This document shows positions 15,009 through 63,666 of a DNA stretch of 64,000 nt, one piece after another. Source of the DNA: Clostridia bacterium (GTDB taxonomy: Bacteria > Bacillota > Clostridia > Oscillospirales > Acutalibacteraceae); assembly GCA_017623235.1 (NCBI GenBank), contig JAGAPN010000033.1, positions 13,725 to 77,724 on the forward strand, in the 5' to 3' direction. A model generated the notes under the pieces. It was given only the letters and a program-made list of their open reading frames with translations. It ran no database searches and had not been told where the DNA came from. Within the stretch, counting starts at the first letter, position 1. Each line of letters starts with the position of its first letter. Made by a program: the position numbers and the translations under genes.

Positions 15009-18000
15009 ATGCAAAAAATAATTTCCCGCTTGCACCTTTCCGCCCGCAAGGGTCTGTCCCTGTTACTTGCAGTACTGGTCTGCTTCTCCACCCTGGCAGG
15101 AGCCCTCGTTTTCGAGAACTCCATTAACGTCAAGGCAGAGGACAGCGAAACTGCAGTAAACGCTGCGCCTAATACCAAGGTGTTCAGCACCACCAATTTC
15201 ACCCAGGCTGATTTTAATGCCAATTTCACTAAGTGGAAGAATGATGGTGCAGTAGTAAATTCCAACGGAACTATTACGCTGACGGCAAATTGTTCAAACA
15301 CCCGTGATTATGCCTATATGCATAACACAAAGTCGTTAAACCAGTCGGCTCGTCTTACCGTTGGGATGAATGCCACCCAAGCAGGTTCGCTTGTTCTTTG
15401 GCTTCGTGCTAACCCCTTTACCCGTAGTAATAATGAGGTTGCACCTATCGGTTATTACGTTCAGGTGAACTTTAACGGTCTGGGCGGAATTTCAAAAACA
15501 GTTGTAAATAAGGCTTATACCAGTGCCACTACCAACTACGGCATATCGGCCATCGGTGAGCAGGCAACCTATATTGACAGTAAGTCAGGCAGCGAATATA
15601 AGGATATAACTGTTGAAGCCACCATTACCTATGATACTACAGCCGAAACCAATGTTATCAATGTTAAGATGTATAAAGGCACAACCCTTATGCATTCATA
15701 TTCTGTAGAAGATAATGATCCGGCTCTTATGGCTGCAGGTACACCGGGCTTTGCCCTTAACAGTAACGGCAGCCAAAGGTCGGTTACCATTAAAGGTTTT
15801 GCTTATCATACCACCGATGCAAACGTTAATAAAACCGTTATTTCCAAAAATAGCTTTGTAACGTCCGACCTTACAAACGATTTTACCTACATAACAAACA
15901 ACACCAATATTTCTGTTGCTGACGGTGTATTAGTTGCCAATGGTGTAGGTAAAAGTAATGTACGAGATGCCTCTATCTTCACTAAGAGTGAGTATTTAAA
16001 CGGTACCGTTAAATCTGCCGCAATTACGCCTCACATTTTATCAGGCGGCACCGTTACTACCCGTTATAAGCAGGCCAGCGTTATCTGGCTCAGAGCATCT
16101 TCCTTTACCCGCCCCAATAATGAAATAGTTCCTATTGGATATTTTGTTCAGGTGTATTTTAATGAAAACACCAACTTTGCAGAGGTTAAGCTTATGAAGC
16201 AGGGCCTCAATGCGGAAGGAACAAACATTGTAGGCGCCACAGCAATAGGAGATGTTAGCGTTAATAAGGATATGCTTGCCAGCAACGGTTCTAAATTCTG
16301 GGATGTTGGTATTGAGGCCGATATAGCTACAGAAAATGGTGAAACTTCTATTACGGTTAGGGTTTATAAGTCTACTAACCTGCTGGGCACCATTACCGCT
16401 ACCGACGATGAAGCCGTTCTTCAGAAACAAGGTAAGGCAGGCTTTGCAGGTCAGAACGCTACCGCCGCCAGCAAGTTCAGCTATCTTACCGTAACCTCGG
16501 CTGAAAAGGTAGCAGGCGCCTATGTTCTTGAAGACTCGGCTAAGGTTGGCGCAATGTTCGGTCAAGCTCTCCTTCTTGAAAAGGATGCTACATATCAGTT
16601 CTCTGTAATGGCTGACGGCAACTTTGATACCGAGCCTCTGGCAGTTATTTACCAGACTGCAAGCGGTAACAATAGGGTTGAGTTTGGCCCCTCTAAAACA
16701 GGAGTTGTAGCCGATACCACCTATAAAAAGTATACCTATACCTTTACAATGCCCAGCGATGCTAAGGAACTTAACAGCTACCGTGTATATGCCTTTGTGG
16801 GCTCCTATATGAACGATGCCACCAAGAACGGCATTAAGTTTACTAATTTCGAGCTTCGCAAGGTTGAGGGCACCAGTGTCGGCGGTAACCTTATTGTCAA
16901 CGGTGACTTTAAGTACGGCGGATATGCTTGGAGCGACAATATATTTGACCAGGCTAATATTTGGAATCTTGCCACTTCTGATTATGACGCCCATACCTTT
17001 GTAAAAGGTAGATATAAGTATTATAAGGACACAAATTCTGATAATTTCTGGAATATGTTTATGTATGATACCGCACCTCCTGTAATCCTTCCCGACCTTG
17101 ATAACACCTATTATAAATTAAACGTTGAGAAGAAGCTTAACGTTACCTTTACAGGCGGTTCTGAAACCACAGGTCACGGCGCCTCCGACCCCGAGACCAC
17201 ATCCTGGCGCGGACTTATTACCCAGTGGCTTAAGGATACCTATCCCCAGGCTACCATCAGCGCAGAAAACGCTGCTATCGGCTCCACCGGTACCCAGCTT
17301 ACCCTTTATAACTACGATAAGATAGGACACGCTACCGACCTTCTGCTCTTAGGTGTTTCCTCTAATGACTGGTCACTTTACGGTCAGGCTCAGAACGGTA
17401 GTGAGAACCCCGATAAGGACAGCATCTACGATTTTGCTCTCCGCCACGGTGAGTCCCTTATCCGTTACGCTATTACCAAGAACCCCAACGTAGATATCGC
17501 TCTGGTATACTTCTTCGATTTCTGGAGAATTGAAGACCAGACCTACTTAAAGGCATATTCCGAGCTGGCAGAGAAGTATAATCTCCCCGTTATTGATATG
17601 CGTGTTCCCCTTAAGGCCCACGTTCTGGCCGACGGTGGCACCTGGTCGGCTGATGGCCTTAAGCTGTACAGCGAGGCTTACAACAGCACCAAGGCTGTCT
17701 ATATGGATACCGTTCATCCTAACGATGCAGGCTATGCTCTCTTTGCAAACTATGCAAAGACCCAGCTTCAGGGCTGGCTTAACCCCGCAACCGCACCCAC
17801 AGCCCTTAAGAACCATACTTTACCCAATGATACCCTTGCAACCAAGCTGGTAACCACCCCCAAGCTGGCTACTGCCAATAACATAGCCACCGCCGAGGGC
17901 TGGTCACTTGAAAACGTTGGCTTCTCCACCATCGGCTCCACCAAGTTCAGCGGCAGCTACGGCCCCTCTACAGGCCGTCTGGTAAGCACCACCGTTGGCG

Positions 18001-21000
18001 CAACCCTGTCCTACACCTTTACAGGTACCGACTTTGGTATGTTCCTCCAGACAGGACCCAGCTACGGTAAGCTTTACGTTGAAATAGACGGCGTTCCCTA
18101 TAAGCAGGGCGCAAACGCCGCAGGTGACGGTATAATCGACCTTAAGCGTGGCGGCGACAGCCACCTTACCAAGGTTGTTATGTACAAGGCTGAAAATAAG
18201 GAGCATAAGATTACCATTAAGCTACAGGAAGGCAAGGCCATTATCGGCGCATTCTTCCTGAATGCAGAAGACCTTCCCGCTGCAGGCGGCGGTACCCTTA
18301 ATTTCACCCGTCCTACCGTAAACGAGGTTTCCTCTAACCTTAACTATCAGTTAAAGCCCAACTATTCTGACCTTGCTTCTAACAATAAGTGGCAGGCCTC
18401 CAATAAGATTACCGTGGGCGCCGATAAGCTCACCCTTAAGGCCTACGGCAACACCTATGAGAATATCTCCCTCTACGGCGAGGCTCATACCGACCAGGTA
18501 GTTTCCCTTGATTTCAAGCATGAGTCCACAGCCATTACGCCTATCGTCTGGGCAAGAGCCCTCCAGGGTACTGCAGGCGCAGGCGCTACCACATCGGGCT
18601 ACTATGCAGCCTTCTGTGGCTACGGTACAGGCGGCATCGCTCTCTATAAGAGGGTAGACGGCGTTGATACTCTCATCGGCGCAATGGGCGCTCATACCGA
18701 TTCCCGTACCTTCCGTGTGGAAATTGCTGTAGAGGGCACCAACCCCACCAAGATTACCGTTTCTACCTATAAGTTAGCCTCCGGTCTTACCGAGGGTGAC
18801 TGGAATATGATGACCACCCGCACGGTATATGATAATACTACCGAGCTGCAGAATGCAGGTTATGCAGGCTTCAGCGTAAAGGATAGCGCTACCACCGATA
18901 ACAAGGATACCGCTACCGTTTACCGCTTTAACTATGCATCTACCGACGGCACAGCCGACAGCCTCACCTATATTGAGAAGCCCGCTACCGTTAACAAGAA
19001 CGTTCTTGCAGGTCAGAAGGTTATCCTTGACCCCGCCAAGACCTACACCCTCTCTGCCAGAGTGAGCGAGGACAATGCCCGCTTTGCTATGAGATACCAG
19101 GCTTCCAGCGGTCTTATCAACGTTTCCGACTGTGTTGGTGAGATTTCCGTAGTAGACGGTTACCGCACCGTATCCTACACCTTCTGTCTTAACGATTGGG
19201 CAGAGGAAAACAACCAGGCTCTGCCTGCCAAGCCCTGGGATTACGGCAACTTTGCCGAGGTACTTATCGGCTTTATTCCCTCCAGCGGTAACACCTTTAG
19301 ATACAGCAACCTTACCCTTACCGAGGCTGGCTCTACCAATAACCTTATTGCTAATGACCAGTATAAGATGGGTACCCTTATCTGGGCAGACTCCATCACA
19401 GGAAAATGGGCATTCAAGACCACCGAGTTCGGCGCTACAGATACCTTCTATAAGTATCTTACTGTTAAGACAGGTGTTTCCCAGACCGATTATGACGCTA
19501 TATTCAAGTCTGCAGGCGAGCAGGCCGATATTGATTACTCCAAGATTGATAAGCTTATGCTTCACCTCACAGGCAAATCCAGCGAGAAGTTCGGTAAGTT
19601 CGGTCAGATGTTTGACCTCAAGCCCGGTGATACCTTCGTTTACTCTGTAGACTTCGGTTATGTTGCAAGAAATTCTGCAGAGCCTATAGCCTTCTACCAC
19701 CTTGAGAAGGACATCACCGCCAGCGATAAGACCAGAAAGACCATTACCTGGCTTACCAAGCGTGAAGGCTCCAAGATGACCTATACCTTCACCATTCCCG
19801 AAGGCGCCTACGTTGATGAAACTACAGGTCTTGCAAAAATCTTCGTCGGACTTACCACAGGTGACTTAGGCGCAGATTGCTACTTTGCAAACTTCAATCT
19901 CTACAACACCGCCGATAAGGCAAAGACCAACCTCTTTGAGAACGCCGACTTTAAGGACGGCGGCTTTAAGAGCTGGATAATCAACTACAACTACTATCTT
20001 ACCTCTAACAACAAGGCCCTTGAGCAGGACCGTGTTGCCGCAGAGCAGTGGATTCGTCCCGGTAAGGACTTCGAGCTGCTGGCCTACGATGCTTCCAAGC
20101 TCTCTCAGGACGACGGCACCTTAAAGCTGCCCGACGTTCCCGATGGCGTTGATTACAGCACCTATAAGGGCAAGTTTATGCTTCACATCCCCGAGACAGT
20201 AACCTCTACCTACGGTAAGATAGGTCAGGTAGTAAATCTTAAGAAGAATACTACCTACAACTTCACAATGCTGTACAAGTATCTCCGTCAGAACACCGTA
20301 CAGCCCACCGTTCTTTACTTCCTTGACGACCCCTATGCATCCGACCAGTACATTAAGGATAAGGGCTTCGTTACCGCCACAGGTAATGCCGACCGAACCA
20401 AGTACATTACCGAGATTCGTAAGGTTGCCTCCTTCGACCTGGTATATGATACCGACAACTGTATGGCTAACGTAACCTTCAAGGTTCCCTCTAACGCTCA
20501 CTTCTATGCCGACGGCACCTCTCCCGTATTCGTGGCTATCTCCTCCGGTGAGTACGAGCCTATCGTATACTATGCGGACATCTGCCTGGCAGAAGAGGGA
20601 AGCGATAAGAACCTGCTTACCAATGCAGACTTCAAGGACGGCTTCTACAAGTGGATTGTAACCTTCGGTTACGGACTCGACCCCGTTGCTGAAAAGGGCA
20701 TATTCTGGACCAACGGCTTCACTATTGCCCAGCTCCTGCCCTTCGATGAAAGCATCTTCGTAAACGATACTAACGACCGTCTCTGGAATGACGGCGACTG
20801 GGCAGCTGCCTTCGGTGCTGACGATAAGGCTAATTCCGATAAGGATGACGACAATGCCGTTTCTGCCGATAAGGAAAAGGTTATCATCCCCGGTAAGCTC
20901 AACGTTGGTGCTACAGTAGCTCTCTTCGGTGGTATTGCCCTGGCAGTTGCCGCCGGCGCAGTGGTACTTGTTATCCTGCTTAAAAAGAAAAAGAACGCGC

Positions 21001-21005
21001 AGTAA
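15009..21005 (+). CDS. Giant (~1998 aa) cell-surface modular protein: signal peptide, three LamG/concanavalin-like modules, an SGNH esterase domain, several jelly-roll (CBM4_9-like) modules and a C-terminal TM anchor
   Basis: I prefer the ATG at 15009 (MQKIISRLHL...LLLAVLVCFSTLAGA, RBS AAAGGAA) over the GTG at 14979. Repeated WLRA..F.R....P.GYYVQ modules. SGNH blocks at ~17120-17790 (FTGGSETTG, GVSSNDW, DTVHPNDAG). Repeated NL(I/L)xN(G/A)DFKxG..W module starts. TM anchor VGATVALFGGIALAVAAGAVVLVILLKKKKN at ~20917-20995. Confidence 0.75.
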   Translation: MQKIISRLHLSARKGLSLLLAVLVCFSTLAGALVFENSINVKAEDSETAVNAAPNTKVFSTTNFTQADFNANFTKWKNDGAVVNSNGTITLTANCSNTRDYAYMHNTKSLNQSARLTVGMNATQAGSLVLWLRANPFTRSNNEVAPIGYYVQVNFNGLGGISKTVVNKAYTSATTNYGISAIGEQATYIDSKSGSEYKDITVEATITYDTTAETNVINVKMYKGTTLMHSYSVEDNDPALMAAGTPGFALNSNGSQRSVTIKGFAYHTTDANVNKTVISKNSFVTSDLTNDFTYITNNTNISVADGVLVANGVGKSNVRDASIFTKSEYLNGTVKSAAITPHILSGGTVTTRYKQASVIWLRASSFTRPNNEIVPIGYFVQVYFNENTNFAEVKLMKQGLNAEGTNIVGATAIGDVSVNKDMLASNGSKFWDVGIEADIATENGETSITVRVYKSTNLLGTITATDDEAVLQKQGKAGFAGQNATAASKFSYLTVTSAEKVAGAYVLEDSAKVGAMFGQALLLEKDATYQFSVMADGNFDTEPLAVIYQTASGNNRVEFGPSKTGVVADTTYKKYTYTFTMPSDAKELNSYRVYAFVGSYMNDATKNGIKFTNFELRKVEGTSVGGNLIVNGDFKYGGYAWSDNIFDQANIWNLATSDYDAHTFVKGRYKYYKDTNSDNFWNMFMYDTAPPVILPDLDNTYYKLNVEKKLNVTFTGGSETTGHGASDPETTSWRGLITQWLKDTYPQATISAENAAIGSTGTQLTLYNYDKIGHATDLLLLGVSSNDWSLYGQAQNGSENPDKDSIYDFALRHGESLIRYAITKNPNVDIALVYFFDFWRIEDQTYLKAYSELAEKYNLPVIDMRVPLKAHVLADGGTWSADGLKLYSEAYNSTKAVYMDTVHPNDAGYALFANYAKTQLQGWLNPATAPTALKNHTLPNDTLATKLVTTPKLATANNIATAEGWSLENVGFSTIGSTKFSGSYGPSTGRLVSTTVGATLSYTFTGTDFGMFLQTGPSYGKLYVEIDGVPYKQGANAAGDGIIDLKRGGDSHLTKVVMYKAENKEHKITIKLQEGKAIIGAFFLNAEDLPAAGGGTLNFTRPTVNEVSSNLNYQLKPNYSDLASNNKWQASNKITVGADKLTLKAYGNTYENISLYGEAHTDQVVSLDFKHESTAITPIVWARALQGTAGAGATTSGYYAAFCGYGTGGIALYKRVDGVDTLIGAMGAHTDSRTFRVEIAVEGTNPTKITVSTYKLASGLTEGDWNMMTTRTVYDNTTELQNAGYAGFSVKDSATTDNKDTATVYRFNYASTDGTADSLTYIEKPATVNKNVLAGQKVILDPAKTYTLSARVSEDNARFAMRYQASSGLINVSDCVGEISVVDGYRTVSYTFCLNDWAEENNQALPAKPWDYGNFAEVLIGFIPSSGNTFRYSNLTLTEAGSTNNLIANDQYKMGTLIWADSITGKWAFKTTEFGATDTFYKYLTVKTGVSQTDYDAIFKSAGEQADIDYSKIDKLMLHLTGKSSEKFGKFGQMFDLKPGDTFVYSVDFGYVARNSAEPIAFYHLEKDITASDKTRKTITWLTKREGSKMTYTFTIPEGAYVDETTGLAKIFVGLTTGDLGADCYFANFNLYNTADKAKTNLFENADFKDGGFKSWIINYNYYLTSNNKALEQDRVAAEQWIRPGKDFELLAYDASKLSQDDGTLKLPDVPDGVDYSTYKGKFMLHIPETVTSTYGKIGQVVNLKKNTTYNFTMLYKYLRQNTVQPTVLYFLDDPYASDQYIKDKGFVTATGNADRTKYITEIRKVASFDLVYDTDNCMANVTFKVPSNAHFYADGTSPVFVAISSGEYEPIVYYADICLAEEGSDKNLLTNADFKDGFYKWIVTFGYGLDPVAEKGIFWTNGFTIAQLLPFDESIFVNDTNDRLWNDGDWAAAFGADDKANSDKDDDNAVSADKEKVIIPGKLNVGATVALFGGIALAVAAGAVVLVILLKKKKNAQ

Positions 21006-21019
21006 AGCAAGCTGAATGA

Positions 21020-21044
21020 CCTGCGGCAGGTCTCCTGCCGCAGG
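21020..21044 (+). promoter_or_regulatory. Intercistronic stem-loop: perfect 11-bp stem with a 3-nt loop
   Basis: CCTGCGGCAGG tct CCTGCCGCAGG, 15 nt after the stop of the giant gene and 24 nt before the next permease start. No U-tract follows, so it is more likely an mRNA processing or stability element than a full terminator. Confidence 0.4.
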
Positions 21045-21067
21045 ATAAAAAGAAAGGAGGACTCGGT

Positions 21068-22009
21068 TTGAAAAATGCAAAAAGCCGCGCAGCAAGTATT
21101 TTAGGTAATATCGCGCGGTATGTGTTCCTTTTGGCGTTCAGCTATATACTGCTGTATCCGCTTATCTTTATGATTTCCAACTCTCTTAAGAGCCCTGCGG
21201 ATTTCTACGACCCCACCGTCGAGTGGGTGCCTAAAAATGCAGTAACAACAAATCTGCAGCTTGCCATTCAGGCTATGGATTTCGGCGGTGCTATAAAAAA
21301 TACCTTCCTTTATGAAATGGTAGCCGCCCTTTTGGAAATCGTTTCCTGTGCCGTTGCGGCATACGGCCTTGCCCGTTTTAAATTCAAGGGCAAAAACCTG
21401 CTTAATGCGGTTATGCTGCTGACCATTCTGGTCCCCACAACCATGATAATTATCCCCAGCTATATTAACTTCCGTTATCTTGATATTTTCGGTATTCTGG
21501 GTCTTATAGGTAAGCTTACAGGCTCCGAACTGCGACTTAACGTGCTTAATACAGGCTGGGTAATGTGGTTACCCTCACTCTTCGCAGTAGGTCTTAAGGG
21601 CGGTCTGTTTATATACATATATAAGCAGTTCTTCCAGGGACTGCCCAAGGAGTTTGAGGAAGCCGCCTGGATAGACGGCGCAGGCCCCATAAAAACCTTC
21701 TTAAAGGTTATAGTGCCTGCCTCCACCGTTCCCATTATCACCGTTACTATGTTTGCGGTGGTGTGGCATTGGAACGACTATTATCTGGCACAGATGTATC
21801 TGTCCAGCAACTTCCCCGTAAGCGTACAGCTTGCAAATATCGAGTCACTACTGGGCAGCGCGCTTCACGGTACAGAAATGACCCAGACTGTTACGGCTCC
21901 CGTAATAATGGCGGGATGCTTGCTTACAGTAACACCCCTTATAATTTTCTATATAGTTTTACAACGCCGTTTTATCGCATCTATTGCCAACAGCGGTATT
22001 GTAGGCTAG
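21068..22009 (+). CDS. Carbohydrate ABC transporter permease (MalG-like)
   Basis: TTG start 7 nt after AAAGGAGG. EAA loop EFEEAAWIDGAGPIKTFLKVIVPAS. Six TM segments. Confidence 0.85.
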   Translation: MKNAKSRAASILGNIARYVFLLAFSYILLYPLIFMISNSLKSPADFYDPTVEWVPKNAVTTNLQLAIQAMDFGGAIKNTFLYEMVAALLEIVSCAVAAYGLARFKFKGKNLLNAVMLLTILVPTTMIIIPSYINFRYLDIFGILGLIGKLTGSELRLNVLNTGWVMWLPSLFAVGLKGGLFIYIYKQFFQGLPKEFEEAAWIDGAGPIKTFLKVIVPASTVPIITVTMFAVVWHWNDYYLAQMYLSSNFPVSVQLANIESLLGSALHGTEMTQTVTAPVIMAGCLLTVTPLIIFYIVLQRRFIASIANSGIVG

Positions 22010-25279: not shown

Positions 25280-27583
25280 ATGAAACTATCATTTTCAAAA
25301 GGCAAAAAGCTCATAGCACTTGCGCTTGTCTCAGCACTTCTCCTGTCAGCCCTCCCGCTGACCCTCTTCGCCTCGGCAGCCGGCTCTGATACAGCTGTTA
25401 CTACGGCACCTAATACCCAGGTGTTTGGAACGGATTCCTTTAATGATGTGCATTTTAAAGAGAATTTTACCGCTTGGTCTAATAACACCAAATCAAGCAT
25501 AGCAGACGGCGTGTTAACAATAACTGCGGCTTCTGGAGATAATGCCAGAAATTCTGCTCAATTCTCCAATGTAAAATCATTAAATCAAGGTATTAGAGCA
25601 TCCTTTAAAAGCACCAAGAGCGACGGTGTTACTGCTGAAACAGATAACGCCATTATTTGGTTGAGATCAAATACCTTTGATCGTGGTGAATCTTTCTCGG
25701 AAAGATATGTTCCTTCGGGATATTATGTACAGGCAAATATGTCGGCCAGTGGATGTGCTGTTACAATAAAAAAAGCCTGGACAAACGAATCAGGCCAATA
25801 CAGTATTACCACCATAGCACAGGTTGGAAATGTGACCTTTGTTGCCGGCCAGGATTACACAATTGATGCATCGGCTATTGAGGATGCAAAAACAGGAAAA
25901 ACCGTTATAAATGTAATGGTTTATCGTAACGCATTACTGCTCAACAGCATTTCAATAGAAGATGATGTTGAAGGACTTCAGGTGGCAGGTTCTGTTGGTG
26001 TTTCTGCAGGATATGATGGTACTACTGCAGGCAGTGGTGTCTGCTTTACAGAACTTAAATATCACACCACAGACAATGATATAGCAAAGGTTGCTTTTGA
26101 AACCAACAATTTTGCAGATAGCGACTTTTCACAGTATTGGACCACAATAAACGGTAATACAGGAAAGGTATCTGTTGCTGATGGTGAAGCAACAATTGTG
26201 GGTGCCAACAATACTCGTGCAAACGCTCAGTTTTTGCAGAAAACCAGCCTTAATCAAGAAATAAGTACACTTATTAAAAATCCTCACATTTATACTCCCG
26301 CTGACGGTGAAACGGCTGCAACTAAAACCCTGAAGAATGCGGATGCTGTAATCTGGCTCAGAGCAAGCAGTTATACACGTACTGTTGGTTCTACCGAAAA
26401 AGTTCCTTTGGGATATTATGTGCTTGTGGATTTTAGTGATGGAAGTTCTAGCGTGCAGATAAAAGTTTACAAGCTTACCAGATTATACGACAGTACAACT
26501 GCTTGTATACAAACAGTAACGCTTACTTCAGAAGTTGCAGGCCAGGCAGATAAGTCTATAAGTTTTGATTCCTGGAGCAATACAGCCAATTACTGCGATG
26601 TGAAGATTGATGCAAGTATTAAGGAAACATCTGAGGGTACCGTTATTGAGGTTAAGCCTTGGAAGGTGCCTTCTACTGGCTCTCCATACAATCCCGGTAC
26701 CATAGTTTGTGTTGATAATGATGCAGACCTTAAGAAAACTGGTGCAGCTGGCTTATCTGCTCAATCGGGAGATATAACATTTAAGTCTTTCAAGGTTGCC
26801 ACCGAGAACGAAGCTAGTCTTGGTTATGTTACCGAGAAGACCGCTAAGAGTGACGGTACATTCTTCGGTCAGGCACTGGCCGTAGAAAATGGAGCTACTT
26901 ATCAGCTTTCAGTAATTTCCGATACAGGCTTTGCTAATGAACCTTTGGCCGTAGCATACGGCAGTAAGAGACTTGAGTTTACCGAGAATACCGAGGGTGT
27001 TATTGTAGACAGTAAGTACAAAAAGTATACCTTTACCTTTAGCATTACTGATGGTACTACCGTTAACACAATGTATGATAAGGTTTCGGGAACACAGGTG
27101 AATCTTGTACCCGTAATGGTTGGTTATACTATGATAAATAGTGCTGTAAATAATCATACCTATACTCATTTTGAACTCAGAAAAATTACCGACGGCGTAG
27201 CGGGTGCTAACCTTATCTTTAACGGTGATTTCAAGATGGGTCTTTGGGGCTGGACAGACGGAGCAAAGGATCCCAGTGTAACAGTTGGTAAAGGCTCCTT
27301 CAAGGCTCCCGATAGTGTAGATGTTGCAGCAAACTATAATCGTTTGGCCTTCCATCGTGATGAAAACCAGTACAACTACTGGAGCAACTTTGTTGCTGAT
27401 GATTTCACCGCAGGTGACGTAAACACCGCCGAGGGTGTTGATATTTGTGACCTCGTATATCTCACAAATATGTCAGCCTATGATATTTATGCAGATATGA
27501 ACTGTGACGGTGATATAACCGTAGATGACGAAACTCTGCTCAGAACGACCGTTCTTAATGCTGTTGTAGATCAGGGAAACTGA
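25280..27583 (+). CDS. Secreted modular protein: two LamG-like modules, a jelly-roll module and a C-terminal dockerin
   Basis: I prefer the ATG at 25280 (MKLSFSKGKKLIALALVSALLL..., RBS GGAGG) over 25265. Paralogous to the N-terminal third of the giant protein (IIWLRSNTFDRG...SGYYVQ, VIWLRASSYTRT...LGYYVLV, ANLIFNGDFKMGLWGWTD). Dockerin Ca-loops DVNTAEGVDICD and DMNCDGDITVDD at ~27400-27560. Confidence 0.75.
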   Translation: MKLSFSKGKKLIALALVSALLLSALPLTLFASAAGSDTAVTTAPNTQVFGTDSFNDVHFKENFTAWSNNTKSSIADGVLTITAASGDNARNSAQFSNVKSLNQGIRASFKSTKSDGVTAETDNAIIWLRSNTFDRGESFSERYVPSGYYVQANMSASGCAVTIKKAWTNESGQYSITTIAQVGNVTFVAGQDYTIDASAIEDAKTGKTVINVMVYRNALLLNSISIEDDVEGLQVAGSVGVSAGYDGTTAGSGVCFTELKYHTTDNDIAKVAFETNNFADSDFSQYWTTINGNTGKVSVADGEATIVGANNTRANAQFLQKTSLNQEISTLIKNPHIYTPADGETAATKTLKNADAVIWLRASSYTRTVGSTEKVPLGYYVLVDFSDGSSSVQIKVYKLTRLYDSTTACIQTVTLTSEVAGQADKSISFDSWSNTANYCDVKIDASIKETSEGTVIEVKPWKVPSTGSPYNPGTIVCVDNDADLKKTGAAGLSAQSGDITFKSFKVATENEASLGYVTEKTAKSDGTFFGQALAVENGATYQLSVISDTGFANEPLAVAYGSKRLEFTENTEGVIVDSKYKKYTFTFSITDGTTVNTMYDKVSGTQVNLVPVMVGYTMINSAVNNHTYTHFELRKITDGVAGANLIFNGDFKMGLWGWTDGAKDPSVTVGKGSFKAPDSVDVAANYNRLAFHRDENQYNYWSNFVADDFTAGDVNTAEGVDICDLVYLTNMSAYDIYADMNCDGDITVDDETLLRTTVLNAVVDQGN

Positions 27584-52632: not shown

Positions 52633-54969
52633 TTAATAATCCAGGTCGTATCTTGTGGCGGCATACTTGCAGTATTTCCACAGTCCCATAAGACGGAATG
52701 ATTTCAGCTCATCCTCGCTTCTTATTTCGGTATAGGCAATATCAATGCCCTTTTCCTTACATTTAAGATAATTTTCCTCGGTGATGTAGGACTCTCCGCC
52801 GTTGGAAACGTAGATGAATTTGGGGTTATTCTCTCCGTAGGTGGCTATCTGACTAATGAGGGTGTCTGTTATTTTCTGCACCCAGGTACCCATAGCCGCC
52901 TTGGGGAGCTTATCTGCCAGATATACAAGGTCCGCTGCCGTCTGTCCGTTTATCATAAGGTTATCCTTATGACCGTAGAGGTCAATGAGAGCCACCAGCT
53001 CATCCAGCTTATCCTCGGTAAGGTCAACCTTTAATTCCAGATGGGGTACGACCTCTAATTCTTTACAAAGGGCCAAGAATTCCTCAACACGCATAATTTT
53101 TGTGCCCTTATACTGCTGACCCTTATATACACCGAAATCGTAGGTGTCGGCCTGGGCCAGGGTGATGTCGGCAATATTTATGGCTTCGTCGTTGGTTATA
53201 CGTTTGCCCTCGCTGTTGGTGGCGTAGCTGTTAATGGTCTTGTCGTGCAGGGCAACAAAATGTCCGTCTGAGGTCAGCCTTACGTCGCACAGCAGAATTT
53301 TATATCCCTTTTCATAGGCCATTCTGTAGGAGGCCAGGGATTGCTGGGGCGGGGTGTTGCTGTCGTAGGGACGGTAGCCGATACGGGCTATCTTCTGTAC
53401 GGCACGCAGACCCTCGCCGATAGTATCGTTAAGCAAAGCGGTACGGAAGTTAGCGGCATCCTCAGCATCTACAGAGCCGTTTTTGTTGGTATCGGAAATA
53501 TAGTAATAATCCTTGCTGACGTTCATATATACCAGGTCCCTTATATCAAACAAAGTGTCACCGTTGGCATCATAGTCCAGGGCGATATATGCGGGATTTT
53601 TAAAATGCTCGTAATAGTCAAAATTGTTCTTATCGCTTAAAACTGTGCCGTATCCCCCTGCTGAAACGGTGGCAGAATCCTCCTTGCCCACCGTACCGCC
53701 AAAGAATTTGGGACCGTCGGCCCAGCCGTAAAGACCCATATCAAAATTGGGATTAACCAGCAGATTGGTTCGGGTGGTATCGCCCTTTTTATACAGGAAG
53801 AAATTAGAGTAATTGCCCACCAGGGCGGTAGAGCTGTTTATTCTGACACCTACAATATGTCTTACCCTGTAGCCGTTCTCTTCGATAGAGCAGGCGTCGT
53901 CACCGCCTGCAGTAAAGGTAACGTAGGAAAGGTTGTAGGGACCGTACTCAAGGTTAGCCTCCTTGCATTGGGCCTCGGTAAGGTCGCAGGTCTTTTGAAT
54001 ACTACCTCGCACAGAGGAAAGGCGGGTAGTGGTGTTTGAGGTCTTGGAAGAGCCGGTCTGGTACTCGACCCATAAGGGCTCGTTCTTGTATCCGGAGTTG
54101 TCCTTGGTATCCACCGTGCCGTAGGCGCCGAAAACATACTCTACACCCTTTTCCAGGGCAATAGTCTGTCCAAAGGTAACGTTGCTTACGGCATTGTTGT
54201 TGGCAAGGTATTTGGGATTGCCCGTTACCTTGTCGGTGGAGGTGTAGGTGAAGCTTTCTATATAAGCGTAATCCTCGGGACTGGTGGAGGAGCCGCTGAC
54301 ACCAATACCTGCCGTACCCTTTAAATAGGGAGCTTCGGTGTCAAGGTAGGTGCCGGTTACCACCAGCTTTTCGGTATCGCCGTCAAGGGTGTAAAGGTTT
54401 ACGGTAATGGCCGCGGCCTTATCTCCGCTTATCACCATCTCCAGACGATAGCTCATACCCTCCTGCTGTGCGCTGACGCCGCATTGAAGCAGAGGGTTAT
54501 TGTTATCGGCGGTGCCGTTTATCTTGTGAAGCATTACTTTGCCGTTTGAGGGGCGGTAAAGGGCATAATATCCTGCCATTGTGGTCCAGTCACCGGGCCT
54601 GCTTAATCGGCCGTAAACGTAGGCTGTGTTACCCTTGGCCAAATCCTCATCGCTGAACTCTACCGCTATACGCTGGTTTTCACGCTCCATTTCGGGCAGA
54701 TAAATACAACCTGCGTAGGCCGAGCGGGTTTGCTTTTGGGTGATGACCTTCAGCTTTCCGTTTTCTACTGTGGAGGTGTATGCCCTGCCGTCGGTGGTTA
54801 CATTTTCCTCGGCCATAAAGGCCCAACTGTTTGCCAGGGAATTGCCTGTAAATTCGTCGGAATACACCCCGTTAATAGAGGTGGCAGTACCCTGCACCGT
54901 CATACCTGTGGGGGTGCAAATGGTAAGGCAAATTATAAGGGATAAGACTAAAGCGGCTATTCTTTTCAT
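52633..54969 (-). CDS. Secreted modular protein: LamG-like module, jelly-roll module, internal dockerin and a C-terminal divergent GDPD-like (PLC-like phosphodiesterase TIM-barrel) domain
   Basis: Signal peptide MKRIAALVLSLIICLTICTP. Shared modules with 61990..63666. Dockerin loops DANGDTLFDIRD and DTNKNGSVDAEDAANF at ~53425-53585. GDPD-like IARIGYRPYD...LLCDVRLTSDGHFVALHDKTIN at ~52633-53400. Confidence 0.65.
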   Translation of the reverse strand: MKRIAALVLSLIICLTICTPTGMTVQGTATSINGVYSDEFTGNSLANSWAFMAEENVTTDGRAYTSTVENGKLKVITQKQTRSAYAGCIYLPEMERENQRIAVEFSDEDLAKGNTAYVYGRLSRPGDWTTMAGYYALYRPSNGKVMLHKINGTADNNNPLLQCGVSAQQEGMSYRLEMVISGDKAAAITVNLYTLDGDTEKLVVTGTYLDTEAPYLKGTAGIGVSGSSTSPEDYAYIESFTYTSTDKVTGNPKYLANNNAVSNVTFGQTIALEKGVEYVFGAYGTVDTKDNSGYKNEPLWVEYQTGSSKTSNTTTRLSSVRGSIQKTCDLTEAQCKEANLEYGPYNLSYVTFTAGGDDACSIEENGYRVRHIVGVRINSSTALVGNYSNFFLYKKGDTTRTNLLVNPNFDMGLYGWADGPKFFGGTVGKEDSATVSAGGYGTVLSDKNNFDYYEHFKNPAYIALDYDANGDTLFDIRDLVYMNVSKDYYYISDTNKNGSVDAEDAANFRTALLNDTIGEGLRAVQKIARIGYRPYDSNTPPQQSLASYRMAYEKGYKILLCDVRLTSDGHFVALHDKTINSYATNSEGKRITNDEAINIADITLAQADTYDFGVYKGQQYKGTKIMRVEEFLALCKELEVVPHLELKVDLTEDKLDELVALIDLYGHKDNLMINGQTAADLVYLADKLPKAAMGTWVQKITDTLISQIATYGENNPKFIYVSNGGESYITEENYLKCKEKGIDIAYTEIRSEDELKSFRLMGLWKYCKYAATRYDLDY

Positions 54970-56370: not shown

Positions 56371-56405
56371 GTAGCGGCGGCTCTGCTTGACAAAGGCAAA
56401 ATTAT

Positions 56406-57260: not shown

Positions 57261-57295
57261 AAAAGGGAGAAGATTCACCGAATCTTCTCCCTTTT
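57261..57295. terminator. Bidirectional rho-independent terminator
   Basis: AAAA GGGAGAAGATT caccg AATCTTCTCCC TTTT, between the AraC stop (57260) and the rhaM stop (57300). Confidence 0.85.
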
Positions 57296-57299
57296 AGTT

Positions 57300-57617: not shown

Positions 57618-57626
57618 AAATATACC

Positions 57627-58967
57627 TTATTTCAGCTTATCAAGCACGTCGTTGGTGCTCTTAACGGCGGCATCTACCAGGTTAGAATACTCGTTAAGCT
57701 TGGTGGATGCATTGGCGGGCTTTGCATTGATGATGCTGGCGTTGATGTGAATACCACCCTTACCGATATCGTCGGTGATAAGGCCGCAATCATAATTTAC
57801 GTACATATTTTCGGCCTTCATAAGAGCCTCGTGAACGTCCAGCATAGTGGGGTCACAGAAGAAGGTGTTCTTATCATAGTTTTCAGAGTCGAGGTAGTAG
57901 CGGAGGAAGAAGGGTGCAAGGCTTCCACAGGGAGCGCCCTGGGGAATAGCGTAAGCCTCTACCTCGGACCAAACTGTTGCATTGGTACCGCCGTCAATGG
58001 TGGGGAAGGGAACAGCAGCAAGAGCGCCCTGTGCCTTTAAGGACTTCCAATAGAAATGAGTACGGCGAACGCTGATAAGCGACTCTGTGAAGAAGAGAAT
58101 TTTGCCGTTTTCAAAGTTGTTGATATCGAAACGGATGTTGTTGGTGATGCCGTCCTCTCTGAGCTGGCACATCTTCTGCCAACCCTTTAAGAGGTTGGGG
58201 TCGCTCATATTGGAAACGAAGCGGTCACCCTCACGCTTAATCATAGCAGAACCGTAAGCATCGCCTGCGTCGGCCCACTGGTAAGAGGTCCAGGGCAGGT
58301 AGGTGTCGTCATCAACCTCTTCCTTGAAGGTCTTGCAGATTTCCTCAAACTTTTCCCAGTTCCAGTTGCCTTGCTTCCAGAGAGAGTAGGGGTCTTCAAG
58401 GTCAAAACGGTTTATAAGATTTTTGTTGTAAAGAAGTGCGCGGGGCTGCTGAAGCAGGGTGTTGCGCATATTGGTGCCGTAGGTTTTACCGTCAAAGGTG
58501 TAGAAATCCATAATACGGGTATCCCAGGCCTCGTCGGTGAAATCAAAATCAATGTTCTGCAGGGGCTCAAGCACACGGATAAGACCTGTGTCGATGCGCA
58601 TAAGTCTTACGATGTCAGGGGAGTCCTGAGAAGCAACACGGGCGGCAATTTTGGTAGAATATTCGTTGTAGCTGCCCTTTACCCATTCGATTTTAATGCC
58701 TGTTTCGTTCTCAAACTGCTCAACAACGTCTACTGCGCCTGTAACGTCGGTAAGGTCGTTCCAAGAGAATACCTCAATGGTCTTGCCCTTGGCATCTGCA
58801 GGAATTTTGGCCTTGATTTCCTGCCAGCCTGCATTATTGGCAGAGTTGCCGGTATTGTTGCCCGAGCTTCCGGTGTCGGAGCTGTCGCCGTTTCCGCCAC
58901 AGCCAGCAACGGTGAATACCATAGCTAAAGCCAGAAGAAGACAGATAAGTTTAGATGCGATTTTCAT
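57627..58967 (-). CDS. ABC transporter substrate-binding lipoprotein, orphan paralog of 22301..23665
   Basis: Lipobox FTVAGCGGNGDSS. Extensive shared blocks with the 454-aa SBP. No permease genes adjacent. Confidence 0.8.
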   Translation of the reverse strand: MKIASKLICLLLALAMVFTVAGCGGNGDSSDTGSSGNNTGNSANNAGWQEIKAKIPADAKGKTIEVFSWNDLTDVTGAVDVVEQFENETGIKIEWVKGSYNEYSTKIAARVASQDSPDIVRLMRIDTGLIRVLEPLQNIDFDFTDEAWDTRIMDFYTFDGKTYGTNMRNTLLQQPRALLYNKNLINRFDLEDPYSLWKQGNWNWEKFEEICKTFKEEVDDDTYLPWTSYQWADAGDAYGSAMIKREGDRFVSNMSDPNLLKGWQKMCQLREDGITNNIRFDINNFENGKILFFTESLISVRRTHFYWKSLKAQGALAAVPFPTIDGGTNATVWSEVEAYAIPQGAPCGSLAPFFLRYYLDSENYDKNTFFCDPTMLDVHEALMKAENMYVNYDCGLITDDIGKGGIHINASIINAKPANASTKLNEYSNLVDAAVKSTNDVLDKLK

Positions 58968-59068
58968 TTGTGTTCCTCCTTGAAATTTATATTATAATGA
59001 TAAAACATTTAAGGACCCTGTTCAAGTTATAATAATGCTGAATTATATAACAAAATCATTCTAAAATA

Positions 59069-61975
59069 TTAATATACGCTTATTTTCAGCACGCTGGCGC
59101 CTGCTACACCGCCCATATAAGAGCCGCCTACTATGTATTGGGGAATGGTAAGAGGGGTAACCCCGTCTTCGGCGTACTTTGTAACGTATTTCTTGGCGGA
59201 GGCATCATAGGTGGTGGCCAGAATCTCGGAATAGAAGTTGTTGTGAACGTGACCGCAGAAGATGCCCTTTATAACCTCGGGGTTAGAGGCGATAAGGTCA
59301 AATACCTTGGCGGTATAGTTTTCCGAGGGACCCTTTGCATCGGAGCCACGCTTAATATAATAGTTATTTTCACCCATAGCGCCTGCCTCACTATCGGGCA
59401 TTGCAGCGCCGTAGCCGGTGTTGAAGGGCACAAATTTGGGGTAGGCCTCGTTATAGGTGTTCATAGGAACGTGCTGGAAAATAAGTATGGGCACGCCGCT
59501 TTGCTTGCAGTCTGCAATATCGGCGCTGAGCCTGTTATAAATGTTGCTGTTATCCTGGTATTTTACCGCCTGGTTATCCATAACAACAATCTTTACCTGC
59601 TTGTCACCCTTGGTGATAACCTCGCTGTGGTAGTAGATGTCGTTGGGCCAGAAATCGCTGTTCAGCTTCTGATATTTATAGTTCTGGGTAAACATTTCTC
59701 TGAAGCCGTTTGCCTTGGATACCTTGGCAAAAAGCTCGGCGGTTTCGTGGTTGCCCAGGGCAATCAGCAGATTATTATTAATGGAGCGGTCTATCAGCAA
59801 CTTTTTAGAAAGCTCAGCAGTACCGTAGGAGAAGTAGTCCATAATATCGCCGATAACAACGGTTTTGTCATAAAAACTACCGAATTCCATCAGCTTTGCG
59901 GAGTTGGCAACACTGCCGAAGCCCTTGTCAACACGGCCCATATCACGGGACACAACAGAGGTTTTACCATCCTTGTCGGTAACCTCCACGCCGAACCATT
60001 GAGCGTTTACGGATGGGTTGTTAAGAAGGGTATCCATCTTATTATAATAGTTAAAGTGAATGTCCGAGAAGGCAGCGATTTCAATAGGTGTGCCGCCCTG
60101 TGAGCTGTCACCGATAACGATATCCCTTACCAGCATATTATTCTTAAGCAGATAAGCGGCGTGGTTGGGGTCACGGTCGGTTTGGCTGTCGGGGGCGTTG
60201 GGGCCGGTAAGCCAGGCAGAAAAGGCGAACCCGCCGTTACCTGTGGTCTTGTCGATAATGCGCTGGCCCTCAACGTAGGTGATAATGGTGTTGCAAAGCG
60301 CACCGGCCTCGTCACCCAGAGCCTCTTTTTCGGCAAGAGCCGTCTTGTAAAGGCTGGTGGTGAGGTAATCGGTGTAAAGAACTCTGGCCACACCGTTTAT
60401 GTCGGTGTACTCGGCATAGCCCTTTACGGTATAGAATTTATAATACTTATCCTTTGTAAGCTGTTCGATAGAATCGGTGATACAAAGGGTGTACTGCTCG
60501 GCTGTAGAGGAGCGGGCGTAGATGTTGGCGGCCGCTACCTTTTTGGGGGAATAGGAGGGGGTGATACTACGGTCTACCACGTGGGCAGAGGATATTTCCA
60601 TATCGGTGCCGCCCGAATAATTGGTAGGCATATAAATTGCGCCGAAGCTCACGCTTCCTACCGCTGATTTTAAAGCGGCTTCAAATTTGCGGTTCTTTTC
60701 GAAGATGATGCGCAGGCCCTGCTTATCGACGCTGTCGGAAACAGCTCGAAGCTCGGTGCCCTTTATGCAGAAATCACTCTCGGCAAAATCCACGTACTTG
60801 GCGTAAAGGATATCTCCTGTCTTGAATTCGCCCGAGCTTACGGCCTTGCCGTTTTTATCGGTCCAGCCTACAAAAAGCTTGCCCTCGGGGTCAAAATAGG
60901 TAAGCTCTGCAAAATTAAGGTTGGTATCCTTCTTTACCTTAATTTCCTTGCCGCCGTTTAAATATTCAATATCGGAATCGGGGAAGGTAACGCTGTATTT
61001 ACCATAGCTGTTAAGGGCAAGCTCCTTGGAAACCGATTCCAGCATTTCGCCTACCGAGGATACGGCCACAGCCTCGTTGTCACCGACCACCTTAAATACA
61101 CCTCTGGTGTCGGTAATCTCCAGATAAGATGCGCCTTTTTCACAGCTCATTACATAAACTCCTTCCTTTGCAGTAAGGGTTTCGGAAATTTCATACAATC
61201 TGTACATTCCGTTGTTGTACAGCAGGGTAACAGCTCCCTCAAACACAGGGGTCTTACCCTTGGTGGTGTAATACATATTGCCAACCTCGGCGCCGATGGT
61301 AAGGTTAAGGTCACCTGTAAAGGTAACGCCGCCGCTGGCGTTGGCGCCTAAAATAAGGTTGGAAAGAGCCGCATTACCCGAAATATTTATGTTGGCGTTG
61401 CGGACCGTAATATCGCTCGCAGAGGTGGAGCCTACGTATATCGAGCCGTAGCTGCCGCCCAGTAGGGTAAGGTTAATATCCTTGCCGCTGACGTCGGCGC
61501 CTGCGTCTATGTTAAGGGAATAGGAGGCAGAACTCTTGGTAACCCCCTCGCCGCAGGTAAGGGGATAGCCTGCAGTGCCAAGAAATACCCAGGTATTGCC
61601 TGCAACACCTGCGCAAAGGCTGATGTCCTCAAATACGGTGGGTCCGCCCAGCAGTATGTTTTTTGTGTAGTGGAAGGTAGCACCCTCACCGGTAAAGGTT
61701 ATTTCCTTGGTGTGGGAGGGAATATTTTCCGATACCGTCAGGGTACCTGCAACCACTATACAGCCCTTATCGTCGGTAGAGCCATCTATGGCGGTTACGG
61801 CCGAGGCAAGGCTGTTAAAAGGTGAGGCAGAGCTGCCGTCACCATCGGTAGCGGCCGAGGTATCAAGATAGACGGTTAGGCAGGTTTTTGTTGTATCATT
61901 GGCAAAGGCAGAGGTGGAAAATACCGATACGATAAGGCAAAGGGTCAGTATTACTGCTATAATTATTTGTTTCAT
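59069..61975 (-). CDS. Secreted 968-aa protein: N-terminal beta-helix/adhesin-like repeats and a C-terminal calcineurin-like metallophosphoesterase domain
   Basis: Signal peptide MKQIIIAVILTLCLIVSVFSTSAFA. Metallophosphatase motifs occur in order at ~59200-60090: AAFSDIHF (DxH), VIGDIMDY (GD), ALGNHE, IFQHVP, CGHVHNN (GHxH). Confidence 0.75.
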   Translation of the reverse strand: MKQIIIAVILTLCLIVSVFSTSAFANDTTKTCLTVYLDTSAATDGDGSSASPFNSLASAVTAIDGSTDDKGCIVVAGTLTVSENIPSHTKEITFTGEGATFHYTKNILLGGPTVFEDISLCAGVAGNTWVFLGTAGYPLTCGEGVTKSSASYSLNIDAGADVSGKDINLTLLGGSYGSIYVGSTSASDITVRNANINISGNAALSNLILGANASGGVTFTGDLNLTIGAEVGNMYYTTKGKTPVFEGAVTLLYNNGMYRLYEISETLTAKEGVYVMSCEKGASYLEITDTRGVFKVVGDNEAVAVSSVGEMLESVSKELALNSYGKYSVTFPDSDIEYLNGGKEIKVKKDTNLNFAELTYFDPEGKLFVGWTDKNGKAVSSGEFKTGDILYAKYVDFAESDFCIKGTELRAVSDSVDKQGLRIIFEKNRKFEAALKSAVGSVSFGAIYMPTNYSGGTDMEISSAHVVDRSITPSYSPKKVAAANIYARSSTAEQYTLCITDSIEQLTKDKYYKFYTVKGYAEYTDINGVARVLYTDYLTTSLYKTALAEKEALGDEAGALCNTIITYVEGQRIIDKTTGNGGFAFSAWLTGPNAPDSQTDRDPNHAAYLLKNNMLVRDIVIGDSSQGGTPIEIAAFSDIHFNYYNKMDTLLNNPSVNAQWFGVEVTDKDGKTSVVSRDMGRVDKGFGSVANSAKLMEFGSFYDKTVVIGDIMDYFSYGTAELSKKLLIDRSINNNLLIALGNHETAELFAKVSKANGFREMFTQNYKYQKLNSDFWPNDIYYHSEVITKGDKQVKIVVMDNQAVKYQDNSNIYNRLSADIADCKQSGVPILIFQHVPMNTYNEAYPKFVPFNTGYGAAMPDSEAGAMGENNYYIKRGSDAKGPSENYTAKVFDLIASNPEVIKGIFCGHVHNNFYSEILATTYDASAKKYVTKYAEDGVTPLTIPQYIVGGSYMGGVAGASVLKISVY

Positions 61976-61989
61976 ATCATCCGCCTCCT

Positions 61990-63666
61990 TTAGTTAAATT
62001 TATCATCGTCGACCGAGTCGTTATCAAGGCCGAGAATATCAAAGGTTTCTTCTATAGTATCCAGCAGAGCAACCCGCAATACTGCGGTGTCCTCGCCGTC
62101 AAAAAGACCGTTTTTATTGCTGTCTACAAGGAAATAATAATCCGTCGATTTTGCGGTATAAACTATATCGCAGATATTGAATTTCTTATCTCTGTTGGCA
62201 TCGTTTGCCAGGCCCTCGTAGGCAGGATTTTTGAAAGTATCATAATATTCATATTTATTTTTATCCTGCAGCAGGGAAACGTAGCCCTGTGACGAGGTCA
62301 GCTTGCTGTCTTCGTCGGTATTGGCAAAACCGTAGTAATTGGGGGCGTCGGTCCAGCCGTAAAGTCCCATTTTAAAATCGGGGTTTACCAGCAGATTGGT
62401 GCGATACGGGTCGTCCTTGCGGTAAAGGGTAAAGTAGGAATAATTACCCAAAAGTACGTCATCGGTGGTAAGTCTTATACCAACGATGTGTCTTACCTTG
62501 CCCTCTATGGTAGAGTCAACGTAGGCCACTCCCGTGCTGCCCGACTGGCTGCTGACGGGATTACTGCCTGCCGTAAAGGTGACATAGGAGAAATTATATT
62601 CGCTGTAGGGCAGATTGGCCTCGACGCATTGTGCCTTTGTAAGGTCGCAGGTTTTTTGTATGTACTTACGATTGTCGTATATTCTGGACCATACATTATC
62701 GGAGTAGGTGGAGCCCGAATGATATTCTACCCATAAAGGCTCGTTGGCGTAGCTGCTGCCGTAAAATGAATCAACGGTACCGACGGCGCCGAATACGTAT
62801 TCAACGTTAGGCTCCAGAGCTACCGTCTGACCGAAGGTTTTCGAGCTCACAGAACGAAGATGGCTTAAATATCTCTCGCCGCCCGAATAGTTATCGGTAG
62901 AGGTATAGCTGAAGTTGTCGACACAGGCATACTGGGAAATGCCCGATTTGCCGCCTACACCAACGCCTGCAGTACCCGAGGTAAAGGGGGTCTTGTCAAC
63001 AAAGGTGTTGTTAACCACCACCAACTGAGCGGAGGAGGTTATTTTAATAAGACGGACATTTATTACGGCATACTGCTGTCCCGTTACCGTCATTTCAAGG
63101 CGGTAGCTGCAGCCGCTCTCATAAGCACGGCTTCCGCAGGTGTTGTATTGCAAATTTGTATCTGTAACTGCCGTCTGCTTGCTTGCGGTATCTGCCCTGT
63201 AAAGCAGAACTCTGCCGTCAGAGGTGCTGTATCTGGCATAGTAGCCTGCAAAGCTTCTCCAGTTGCTGTCATCCTTTTTGGTAAGACGGGCGTAAACGGA
63301 TACGGTGTTACCCTGGGGCAGGTCGGTCATATTAAATTCAACCGCAACCCTCTGGTCGCAGGTTTCCTTGCCCGGCAGATAAAGGGCGCCGGCAAATCTT
63401 GAACGGTCCTGATTCTGGGTGTCTACCTTTAGCTTACCATCTGCCACCGAAGAGGTGTAGGTGTAGCCGTCAATGGTTTCGCCCTTGCCCATAAGTACCC
63501 ATTTGTCTGACAGGCTATTTTCCGAAAAATCATCGGAATACACCAGGTTTATGGGTGTGCTGTCCTCGGCCGAAGCCATAAAGGCCGAAACAAAGCAGGC
63601 GGTAAGGCACAAAACGGTAGCTAAAATAATAGCCAAGCCACGCTTAAAGACTGTTTTAACCGTCAT
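61990..63666 (-). CDS. Secreted modular protein: LamG-like module, jelly-roll module and a C-terminal dockerin. No enzymatic domain is recognisable.
   Basis: I prefer the ATG at 63666 (MTVKTVFKRGLAIILATVLCL..., RBS AAAGGAG) over 63699. Collinear with the N-terminal 470 aa of the 778-aa protein (e.g. NEPLWVEYH/Q.GS, IQKTCDLT.AQC.EANL.Y, RTNLLVNPDFKMGLYGWTD). Dockerin loops DANRDKKFNICD and DSNKNGLFDGED at ~62050-62215. Confidence 0.7.
   Translation of the reverse strand: MTVKTVFKRGLAIILATVLCLTACFVSAFMASAEDSTPINLVYSDDFSENSLSDKWVLMGKGETIDGYTYTSSVADGKLKVDTQNQDRSRFAGALYLPGKETCDQRVAVEFNMTDLPQGNTVSVYARLTKKDDSNWRSFAGYYARYSTSDGRVLLYRADTASKQTAVTDTNLQYNTCGSRAYESGCSYRLEMTVTGQQYAVINVRLIKITSSAQLVVVNNTFVDKTPFTSGTAGVGVGGKSGISQYACVDNFSYTSTDNYSGGERYLSHLRSVSSKTFGQTVALEPNVEYVFGAVGTVDSFYGSSYANEPLWVEYHSGSTYSDNVWSRIYDNRKYIQKTCDLTKAQCVEANLPYSEYNFSYVTFTAGSNPVSSQSGSTGVAYVDSTIEGKVRHIVGIRLTTDDVLLGNYSYFTLYRKDDPYRTNLLVNPDFKMGLYGWTDAPNYYGFANTDEDSKLTSSQGYVSLLQDKNKYEYYDTFKNPAYEGLANDANRDKKFNICDIVYTAKSTDYYFLVDSNKNGLFDGEDTAVLRVALLDTIEETFDILGLDNDSVDDDKFN

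Follow-up and report, generated by a model that had tools for sequence, protein, structure and literature searches.

We analyzed a 64,000-nucleotide (nt) stretch of contig JAGAPN010000033.1 (positions 13,725 to 77,724) in the Clostridia assembly GCA_017623235.1, referred to here as the window, with a focus on four open reading frames (ORFs), named P0001, P0002, P0003, and P0004, whose products are assembled from two recurring modules, A and B. All four ORFs were open, at 15009..21005 (+), 25280..27583 (+), 52633..54969 (-), and 61990..63666 (-), respectively, and a signal-peptide-like segment was present at the N-terminus in 4/4. P0001 (1998 amino acids, aa) consists of a signal peptide, A-A-B, an SGNH esterase with an adjoining sandwich, A-B-B-B, and a C-terminal transmembrane helix with KKKK. 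Its modules A1 (residues 55-273) and A2 (274-501), which are concanavalin A (ConA)/LamG-like sandwiches placed by hidden Markov model (HMM) mapping and leave-out tests, occupy 15171..16511 (+), and the jelly roll B1 (residues 496-650), which ends in the NLxxNxDFxxGxxW motif, follows at 16494..16958 (+). The payload, located with Pfam and by collinearity with RiCE17, lies at 17151..18323 (+) and comprises an SGNH hydrolase (residues 715-911) and then a beta-sandwich (~940-1105). Modules A3 (1110-1318), B2 (1317-1468), B3 (1503-1665), and B4 (1711-1891) fill 18336..20681 (+), and the translation closes with a 26-residue hydrophobic helix (residues 1966-1991; 20904..20981, +) followed by KKKKNAQ.

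The other three proteins are shorter and share a common plan. P0002 (767 aa) carries a signal peptide, A1 (residues 45-268), A2 (269-516), B (509-667), and a C-terminal dockerin (~712-757; nt 27413-27550, +). In P0003 (778 aa), encoded on the minus strand, the signal peptide is followed by A (residues 31-249; nt 54223-54879), B (250-425; nt 53695-54222), an internal dockerin (467-513; nt 53431-53571), and a GDPD-like domain (~527-778; nt 52636-53391). P0004 (558 aa), also on the minus strand, has a signal peptide, A (residues 38-261; nt 62884-63555), B (262-447; nt 62326-62883), and a C-terminal dockerin (489-535; nt 62062-62202).

Shared modules and their folds

All-against-all BLASTP joined P0001 with P0002 (E 3e-88, 34% identity across 714 aa) and P0003 with P0004 (E 2e-163, 48% identity across 541 aa), and pairs crossing these two groups were recovered at E 4e-10 to 5e-17, giving two deeply diverged subfamilies. 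HMM mapping placed seven copies of module A (~220 aa each; three in P0001, two in P0002, and one each in P0003 and P0004) and seven of module B (~160 aa plus a tail; four in P0001 and one in each of the other proteins). Because HMMs trivially find their own training sequences, the searches were repeated with each protein, and then each whole subfamily, removed from the training set. With a subfamily left out, module B was detected across the divide at 1e-11 to 1e-19 and module A at ~1e-6, the latter bridged by P0001-A3 and P0004-A. The weakest and most divergent copy, P0001-B4 (E 0.095 with P0001 left out), aligned well with the final repeats of orthologous arrays. The three motifs quoted in the initial annotation of this DNA, a reading of the sequence alone, were exclusive to P0001-P0004 among the six-frame ORFs of the assembly (1.26 million residues). 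That annotation had described four paralogous secreted proteins with shared modules, and the significant BLASTP matches and cross-detecting leave-out HMMs uphold it. Since BLASTP, leave-out HMMs, and motif exclusivity all showed relatedness, the opposite outcome of an all-against-all alignment, namely, no significant mutual similarity, can be set aside. The earlier observation is confirmed, and the interpretation attached to it was partly right.

When the isolated modules P0003:31-249 and P0001:55-273 were searched with E values as permissive as 10, none of the Pfam models matched module A, and a profile search against PDB sequences returned nothing meaningful. The AlphaFold2 (AF2) model of P0004, with a mean predicted local distance difference test (pLDDT) score of 67 and values of 75-92 over module A, resembled legume lectins, ERGIC-53, and the C-terminal sandwiches of glycoside hydrolase family 43 (GH43) at E about 1e-6 in Foldseek. 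In the ESM Atlas, template modeling (TM) scores of 0.68-0.76 were obtained to clusters bearing Laminin_G_3 or 3keto-disac_hyd (DUF1080). By both searches, module A has the two-sheet curved beta-sandwich of the ConA-like/LamG type, and on these fold matches, the label "LamG-like" given in the initial annotation was correct at the level of the ConA-like superfamily.

A profile of module B showed weak similarity (E 0.004) to the family 16 carbohydrate-binding modules (CBM16) of ManA (PDB 2zew-2zez), and a deeper profile also matched CBM4 (1gui) and a GH10 CBM (4mgq). The Pfam model CBM_4_9 scored 16.5 bits (E 0.011) on P0003:250-450, below its 25.9-bit gathering cut-off, and was matched by one of the 34 best relatives (E 2.7e-6). 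With 30 repeat units as its basis, an AF2 model covering P0001:1444-1700 reached pLDDT 81, and its best PDB match in Foldseek was the CBM of PbXyn10C (4mgq; E 7.8e-5, TM score by target 0.53), with further matches to CBM16 (2zey; E 5.7e-3) and then to 1gui (CBM4) and 4xup (CBM22), and the model displays the jelly-roll fold of these families. On the strength of the profile matches together with the fold matches, module B is a jelly roll of the CBM4_9/CBM16/CBM22 group. Recognition of the target polymer had been described as a probable function of the sandwich, which may or may not have it; by sequence and fold, B is the module related to proven carbohydrate-binding modules.

The position of one conserved motif sets module B apart from these relatives. 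In CBM16, NL(L/I)xNxDFxxGxxW spans residues 2-19, the first strand; here, it always stood after the B core, so the canonical strand order is not kept. In B-only relatives, the first core came directly after the signal peptide, and every core, the last included, was followed by the motif and a conserved ~50-aa tail. This domain order would be explained most simply by a circular permutation of the jelly roll; alternatively, each motif may complete the next core by strand donation. Both motifs flanking the B3 region had high pLDDT in its AF2 model. What had been termed a boundary motif is indeed present in the four proteins, although it is not a linker and corresponds to the first strand of CBM16/CBM4_9.

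Payloads and anchors

In searches of whole proteins and isolated modules, the only Pfam/NCBIfam matches to pass their cut-offs were SGNH and GDPD; CBM_4_9, Dockerin_1, and CE2_N remained below threshold. P0001 matched Lipase_GDSL_2 with 42.3 bits against a cut-off of 32.9, and its SGNH blocks were intact, with GGSET providing the Ser, GVSSND the Gly-x-Asn-Asp, and DTVH the Asp-x-x-His. Residues 690-1110, covering the SGNH domain and the sandwich, were collinear with RiCE17 (PDB 6hfz; E 2e-8). P0003 matched GDPD (PF03009) with 51.8 bits against a cut-off of 23.6 and PDB 2pz0 at E 6e-12, with HRG replaced by YRP, E-x-D by C-x-D, and PENT by P(E/Q)QS. These substitutions were invariant in seven orthologs, whose identity was 73-91% over the GDPD-like domain versus about 50% over the A-B part. 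Because the domain is more conserved than the A-B part and its substitutions are invariant, it is under selection, but it is not a canonical phosphodiesterase. No catalytic domain was found in P0002 or P0004 with Pfam and NCBIfam on the whole proteins. The proposal that the family carries differing payloads (SGNH, GDPD-like, or none) was thus borne out, with Lipase_GDSL_2 and GDPD above cut-off.

Attachment also differs among the four proteins, as had been proposed: P0001 ends in the transmembrane helix with poly-Lys, and the other three carry dockerins, as seen in the sequence and with a dockerin HMM. Each dockerin segment of P0002, P0003, and P0004 contains two EF-hand-like loops, within the two ~22-aa repeats of calcium loop (D-x-N/D-x-D/N-..-D/N-x-x-D) plus helix that are characteristic of dockerins; in P0002, position 5 of the first loop is Ala. 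The Dockerin model PF00404 scored 14.3 bits on P0002 and 15.0 bits on P0003, below its cut-off of 22.9, and did not match P0004. An HMM built from the three window dockerins also found Pfam-positive dockerins on contigs C73, C67, C25, and C1, together with several further segments, and a DICDLV-type first repeat occurred in at least 12 ORFs of the genome. The segments can accordingly be read as divergent, two-loop dockerins, which lie at the C-terminus of P0002 and P0004 but inside P0003.

A cohesin search of the window found no match, consistent with the earlier statement that no cohesin-bearing partner is encoded there. In the genome-wide check that had been suggested, nothing across the 71%-complete assembly exceeded the cut-off, and a single candidate was found on contig C1 at a sub-threshold 19.6-21 bits. 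Its layout is that of a signal-peptide/cohesin-like/cadherin-like/transmembrane-anchored protein, and a PDB sequence search found no match for it among solved structures. In this stretch of C1 (~7441-11151), the candidate lies directly downstream of a dockerin-bearing glucosaminidase-like gene.

Distribution and genomic context

Within the assembly, module B occurred only in P0001-P0004; module A was also found, in three weaker copies, in a dockerin/beta-helix gene on contig C28. This gene (C28:17647-21453, -), which lies outside the window, is interrupted by one in-frame TAA (C28:19441-19443) in the third of its module-A-like repeats, which could reflect a pseudogene, a sequencing error, or read-through. 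Among 1.84 billion representative proteins, the A-B profile retrieved 83 clusters at E up to 1e-3, 54 at 1e-10, and 32 at 1e-30. The architectures of these relatives were combinatorial and included A-B, the common A-A-B-dockerin (about 750 aa), A(n)-B, B-only proteins with 3-9 copies, and A-only arrays. Pfam domains among the best 34 relatives were SGNH (8), dockerin (5), CarboxypepD_reg (5), CE2_N (2), GDPD (1), and CBM_4_9 (1). The named relatives came from Acutalibacteraceae metagenome-assembled genomes (MAGs) and one Hadza "Eubacteriales" MAG. The family is rare: 0 of 200 other sampled genomes of the same GTDB family matched, including a 97%-complete genome of the same genus, and the genomes that carry it have several copies each. 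The assembly measures 1.61 Mb at 71% completeness, and the same-genus genome lacking the A/B family measures 1.3 Mb. The 90-kb contig C53 represents either accessory DNA or a binning question, and near-identical contigs in other assemblies adjoin housekeeping genes.

The P0001/P0002 operon had syntenic counterparts in two assemblies, and the genes for P0003 and P0004 had theirs in one. The operon recurs in GCA_045579465.1, where the P0001 counterpart is 93% identical, and a distant Logan contig encodes, in order, a 2045-aa SGNH protein, a permease, a solute-binding protein (SBP), a 511-aa protein, a 760-aa A-A-B protein with 37% identity to P0002, a beta-helix protein, and a glycyl radical enzyme. 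In GCA_052832945.1, the order is AraC, P0004-like, Metallophos, SBP, RhaM, AraC, Gfo, P0003-like GDPD, and TIM barrel, and this block adjoins nusA-infB. The N-terminal A-A-B of P0001 was 43% identical to the A-A-B-dockerin proteins of other genomes versus 34% to P0002, and its C-terminal half was 48-52% identical to other giant proteins. P0001 is a mosaic, and given its structure, the synteny, and the distribution, the paralogs are old, stable parts of a conserved locus that arose by module shuffling, not products of recent diversification in place. The initial annotation had called the family locus-specific and diversified within one locus. Neither term holds, with module A also present on C28, the modules spread over about 80 clusters with many architectures, the subfamilies deeply diverged, and every paralog matched by a syntenic gene in one or more further assemblies. 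A tree of A-B units, with long branches and several open forks, serves as a hint only and not as evidence for duplication order; in it, proteins of 547 aa (without payload) and 779 aa (with GDPD) from another lineage interleaved and did not separate into two clades, a hint that gene conversion took place or that the GDPD domain was gained and lost repeatedly.

The window as a whole is a set of Gram-positive glycan-utilization operons. It holds three CUT1-type binding proteins with permeases, and its enzymes include two DUF5696 proteins, three beta-helix proteins, GH78-like, GH36-like, GH31, and GH42-like proteins, and a SASA esterase. Hexuronate catabolism genes and two glycyl radical enzyme/activase pairs are also present, as are three Gfo/Idh/MocA oxidoreductases and a xylose-isomerase-like TIM barrel (in the P0003 operon); no signal peptide is present on the oxidoreductases or the TIM barrel, so these enzymes act after uptake. 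The 6-kb P0001 gene is placed between two ATP-binding cassette (ABC) permease genes (window 14027-22009, +), and this placement is kept in GCA_045579465.1. The distant Logan contig likewise has a permease gene immediately following the giant gene, within which the contig ends, so that the upstream side is unseen. Adjoining P0004 is a gene (window 59069-61975, -) for a secreted 968-aa protein with a C-terminal metallophosphoesterase and an unannotated N-terminal region of ~630 aa. The adjacency of P0004 and the metallophosphoesterase is conserved in GCA_052832945.1. Taken with the GDPD-like domain, the metallophosphoesterase is a hint that the substrate carries phosphodiesters. Elsewhere, a 938-aa solute-binding protein (window 5037-6700, +) has an N-terminal extension of ~540 aa with a weak, below-cut-off CBM_35 hint (E 5e-4).

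Discussion

Our analysis indicates that four extracellular proteins of this locus form one modular family, in which we think it likely that A and B serve as glycan-binding and spacing arms. P0001 would be held in the membrane by its C-terminal helix and would display a CE17-like acetylesterase on the outside of the cell, beside the ABC importer whose permease genes flank its own gene. P0002 and P0004 would act as enzyme-free binders and P0003 as a binder with a GDPD-like domain, all three being hung by their dockerins on a cohesin protein whose gene lies elsewhere. Jointly, the four proteins would capture a decorated polysaccharide, probably acetylated and possibly phosphodiester-substituted, and hold it for the neighboring beta-helix, DUF5696, GH78-like, and GH36-like enzymes. 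Several observations weigh against this proposal. Both modules fall below Pfam cut-offs, and the resemblance to CBMs at the sequence level is marginal (E 0.004-0.03); in module A, the conserved positions look like structural ones and not like ligand contacts; in the P0003 payload, the canonical catalytic His and a metal-binding Glu of GDPD enzymes are missing; and the assembly, 71% complete, offers a single cohesin candidate, which is sub-threshold and without a match among solved structures.

In a rival reading, A and B are inert spacers, a stalk of tandem sandwiches that projects the payloads past the cell wall or S-layer while recognition is left to the payloads themselves, for example, to a CE17-like clamp. 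Relatives with long B-only arrays (up to nine copies) or A-only arrays, as found in surface stalk proteins, the mostly core positions of the invariant residues of A and B, and the co-occurrence of CarboxypepD_reg and other Ig-like spacer domains in relatives are all in keeping with such a stalk. P0002 and P0004, however, are payload-free yet conserved with dockerins and thus have nothing to project, and B has its nearest relatives, in sequence and in fold, among ligand-binding CBMs; we regard a purely spacing role as improbable overall, though plausible for the long arrays. We give far less weight to a catalytic module A, in the form of either a DUF1080-like 3-keto-glycoside lyase/hydratase or a GH16-like enzyme, that would work with the Gfo/Idh/MocA oxidoreductases and TIM barrel of the P0003 operon in the alternative, oxidative route for cleaving glycosides. 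The enzyme classes in the P0003 operon are the same as those of the AL/BT clusters (bioRxiv 10.1101/2024.03.25.586180), and PF06439 (3keto-disac_hyd) clusters are among the structural neighbors of A (TM score about 0.7). Nevertheless, the fold is equally like lectins and Laminin_G_3, no PF06439 match was found at E up to 10 in P0003:31-249 or P0001:55-273, and A occurs also in P0001 and P0002, whose operons lack those enzymes. Moreover, A is extracellular, and the oxidoreductases and TIM barrel are without signal peptides. These points make such catalysis very unlikely. The chance that the resemblance is accidental or compositional, with no real family behind it, is practically nil: chance similarity is excluded by BLASTP E values to 1e-163, the leave-out HMMs, the exclusive motifs, and the 54 clusters at E up to 1e-10.

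Returning to glycan-binding and spacing arms as the preferred reading, we also considered a bolder version of it, in which B founds a new CBM family as a circularly permuted relative of CBM4_9/16/22, B joined to the uncatalogued ConA-like module makes an A-B recognition unit specific to a complex decorated glycan that a narrow Acutalibacteraceae clade of gut bacteria uses, and the His-less GDPD-like domain of P0003 is a new phosphodiester-recognizing or non-canonical catalytic module. We hold this version to be rather doubtful. What lies at the locus is a rare, uncatalogued variant of a familiar design, with binding modules, an esterase, and a dockerin or transmembrane anchor in a glycan-utilization locus. 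Of moderate interest are a CBM topology that is probably permuted, an A-B unit that lacks annotation, and a GDPD-like domain that is non-canonical yet conserved. Gram-positive gut bacteria seize complex glycans by means of multi-modular surface proteins in which binding modules are combined with dockerins, and the present family adds two modules that are absent from curated libraries and limited to a few uncultured Acutalibacteraceae-like genomes, within a conserved locus where two unusual glycyl radical enzymes are encoded as well. Identifying the ligand of the modules would name the substrate of the whole locus and could define a new CBM family of permuted topology. The practical gain would be modest, namely, improved annotation of gut metagenomes and a candidate system for targeting an acetylesterase.

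Among known systems, a parallel to P0002 and P0004 is offered by Sas6 of the Ruminococcus bromii amylosome, a secreted, enzyme-free, starch-binding protein with CBM26, CBM74, and a dockerin (bioRxiv 10.1101/2022.11.20.514607). All three proteins combine two kinds of binding module with a dockerin and no enzyme; Sas6 uses CBM26 and CBM74 on starch, whereas P0002 and P0004 use uncatalogued modules. Cohesin-dockerin complexes exist in Acutalibacteraceae (PMC12997984), in line with the attachment proposed here. The payload of P0001 can be compared with RiCE17 of Roseburia intestinalis, a CE17 acetyl-mannan esterase composed of an SGNH domain plus a CBM35 clamp (PMC10154613). Both have SGNH followed by a sandwich, with the catalytic blocks present, but RiCE17 is a 378-aa stand-alone enzyme, and the P0001 unit sits between seven A/B modules in a 1998-aa membrane-anchored protein. 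P0003 shares TIM-barrel homology with GDPD enzymes (PF03009; PDB 2pz0) over residues 527-700 and departs from them at the HRG, E-x-D, and PENT motifs, where it carries YRP, C-x-D, and P(E/Q)QS.

The modules themselves show the same mixture of likeness and departure. Module A shares its fold with the ConA-like lectin/glucanase superfamily, including LamG/Laminin_G_3, DUF1080/3keto-disac_hyd, and the legume lectins, but its sequence matches none of the Pfam families of that superfamily, even permissively. Module B, like the CBM4_9/CBM16/CBM22 modules represented by ManA CBM16 and the PbXyn10C CBM, is a beta jelly roll of the ~150-aa type and has in common with them an NL(L/I)xNGxFExGxxGW-type strand and a G-Q...L...g..Y segment. 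Those modules open with the NLxxNG motif, whereas module B has it behind the core, and its arrays begin with a core.

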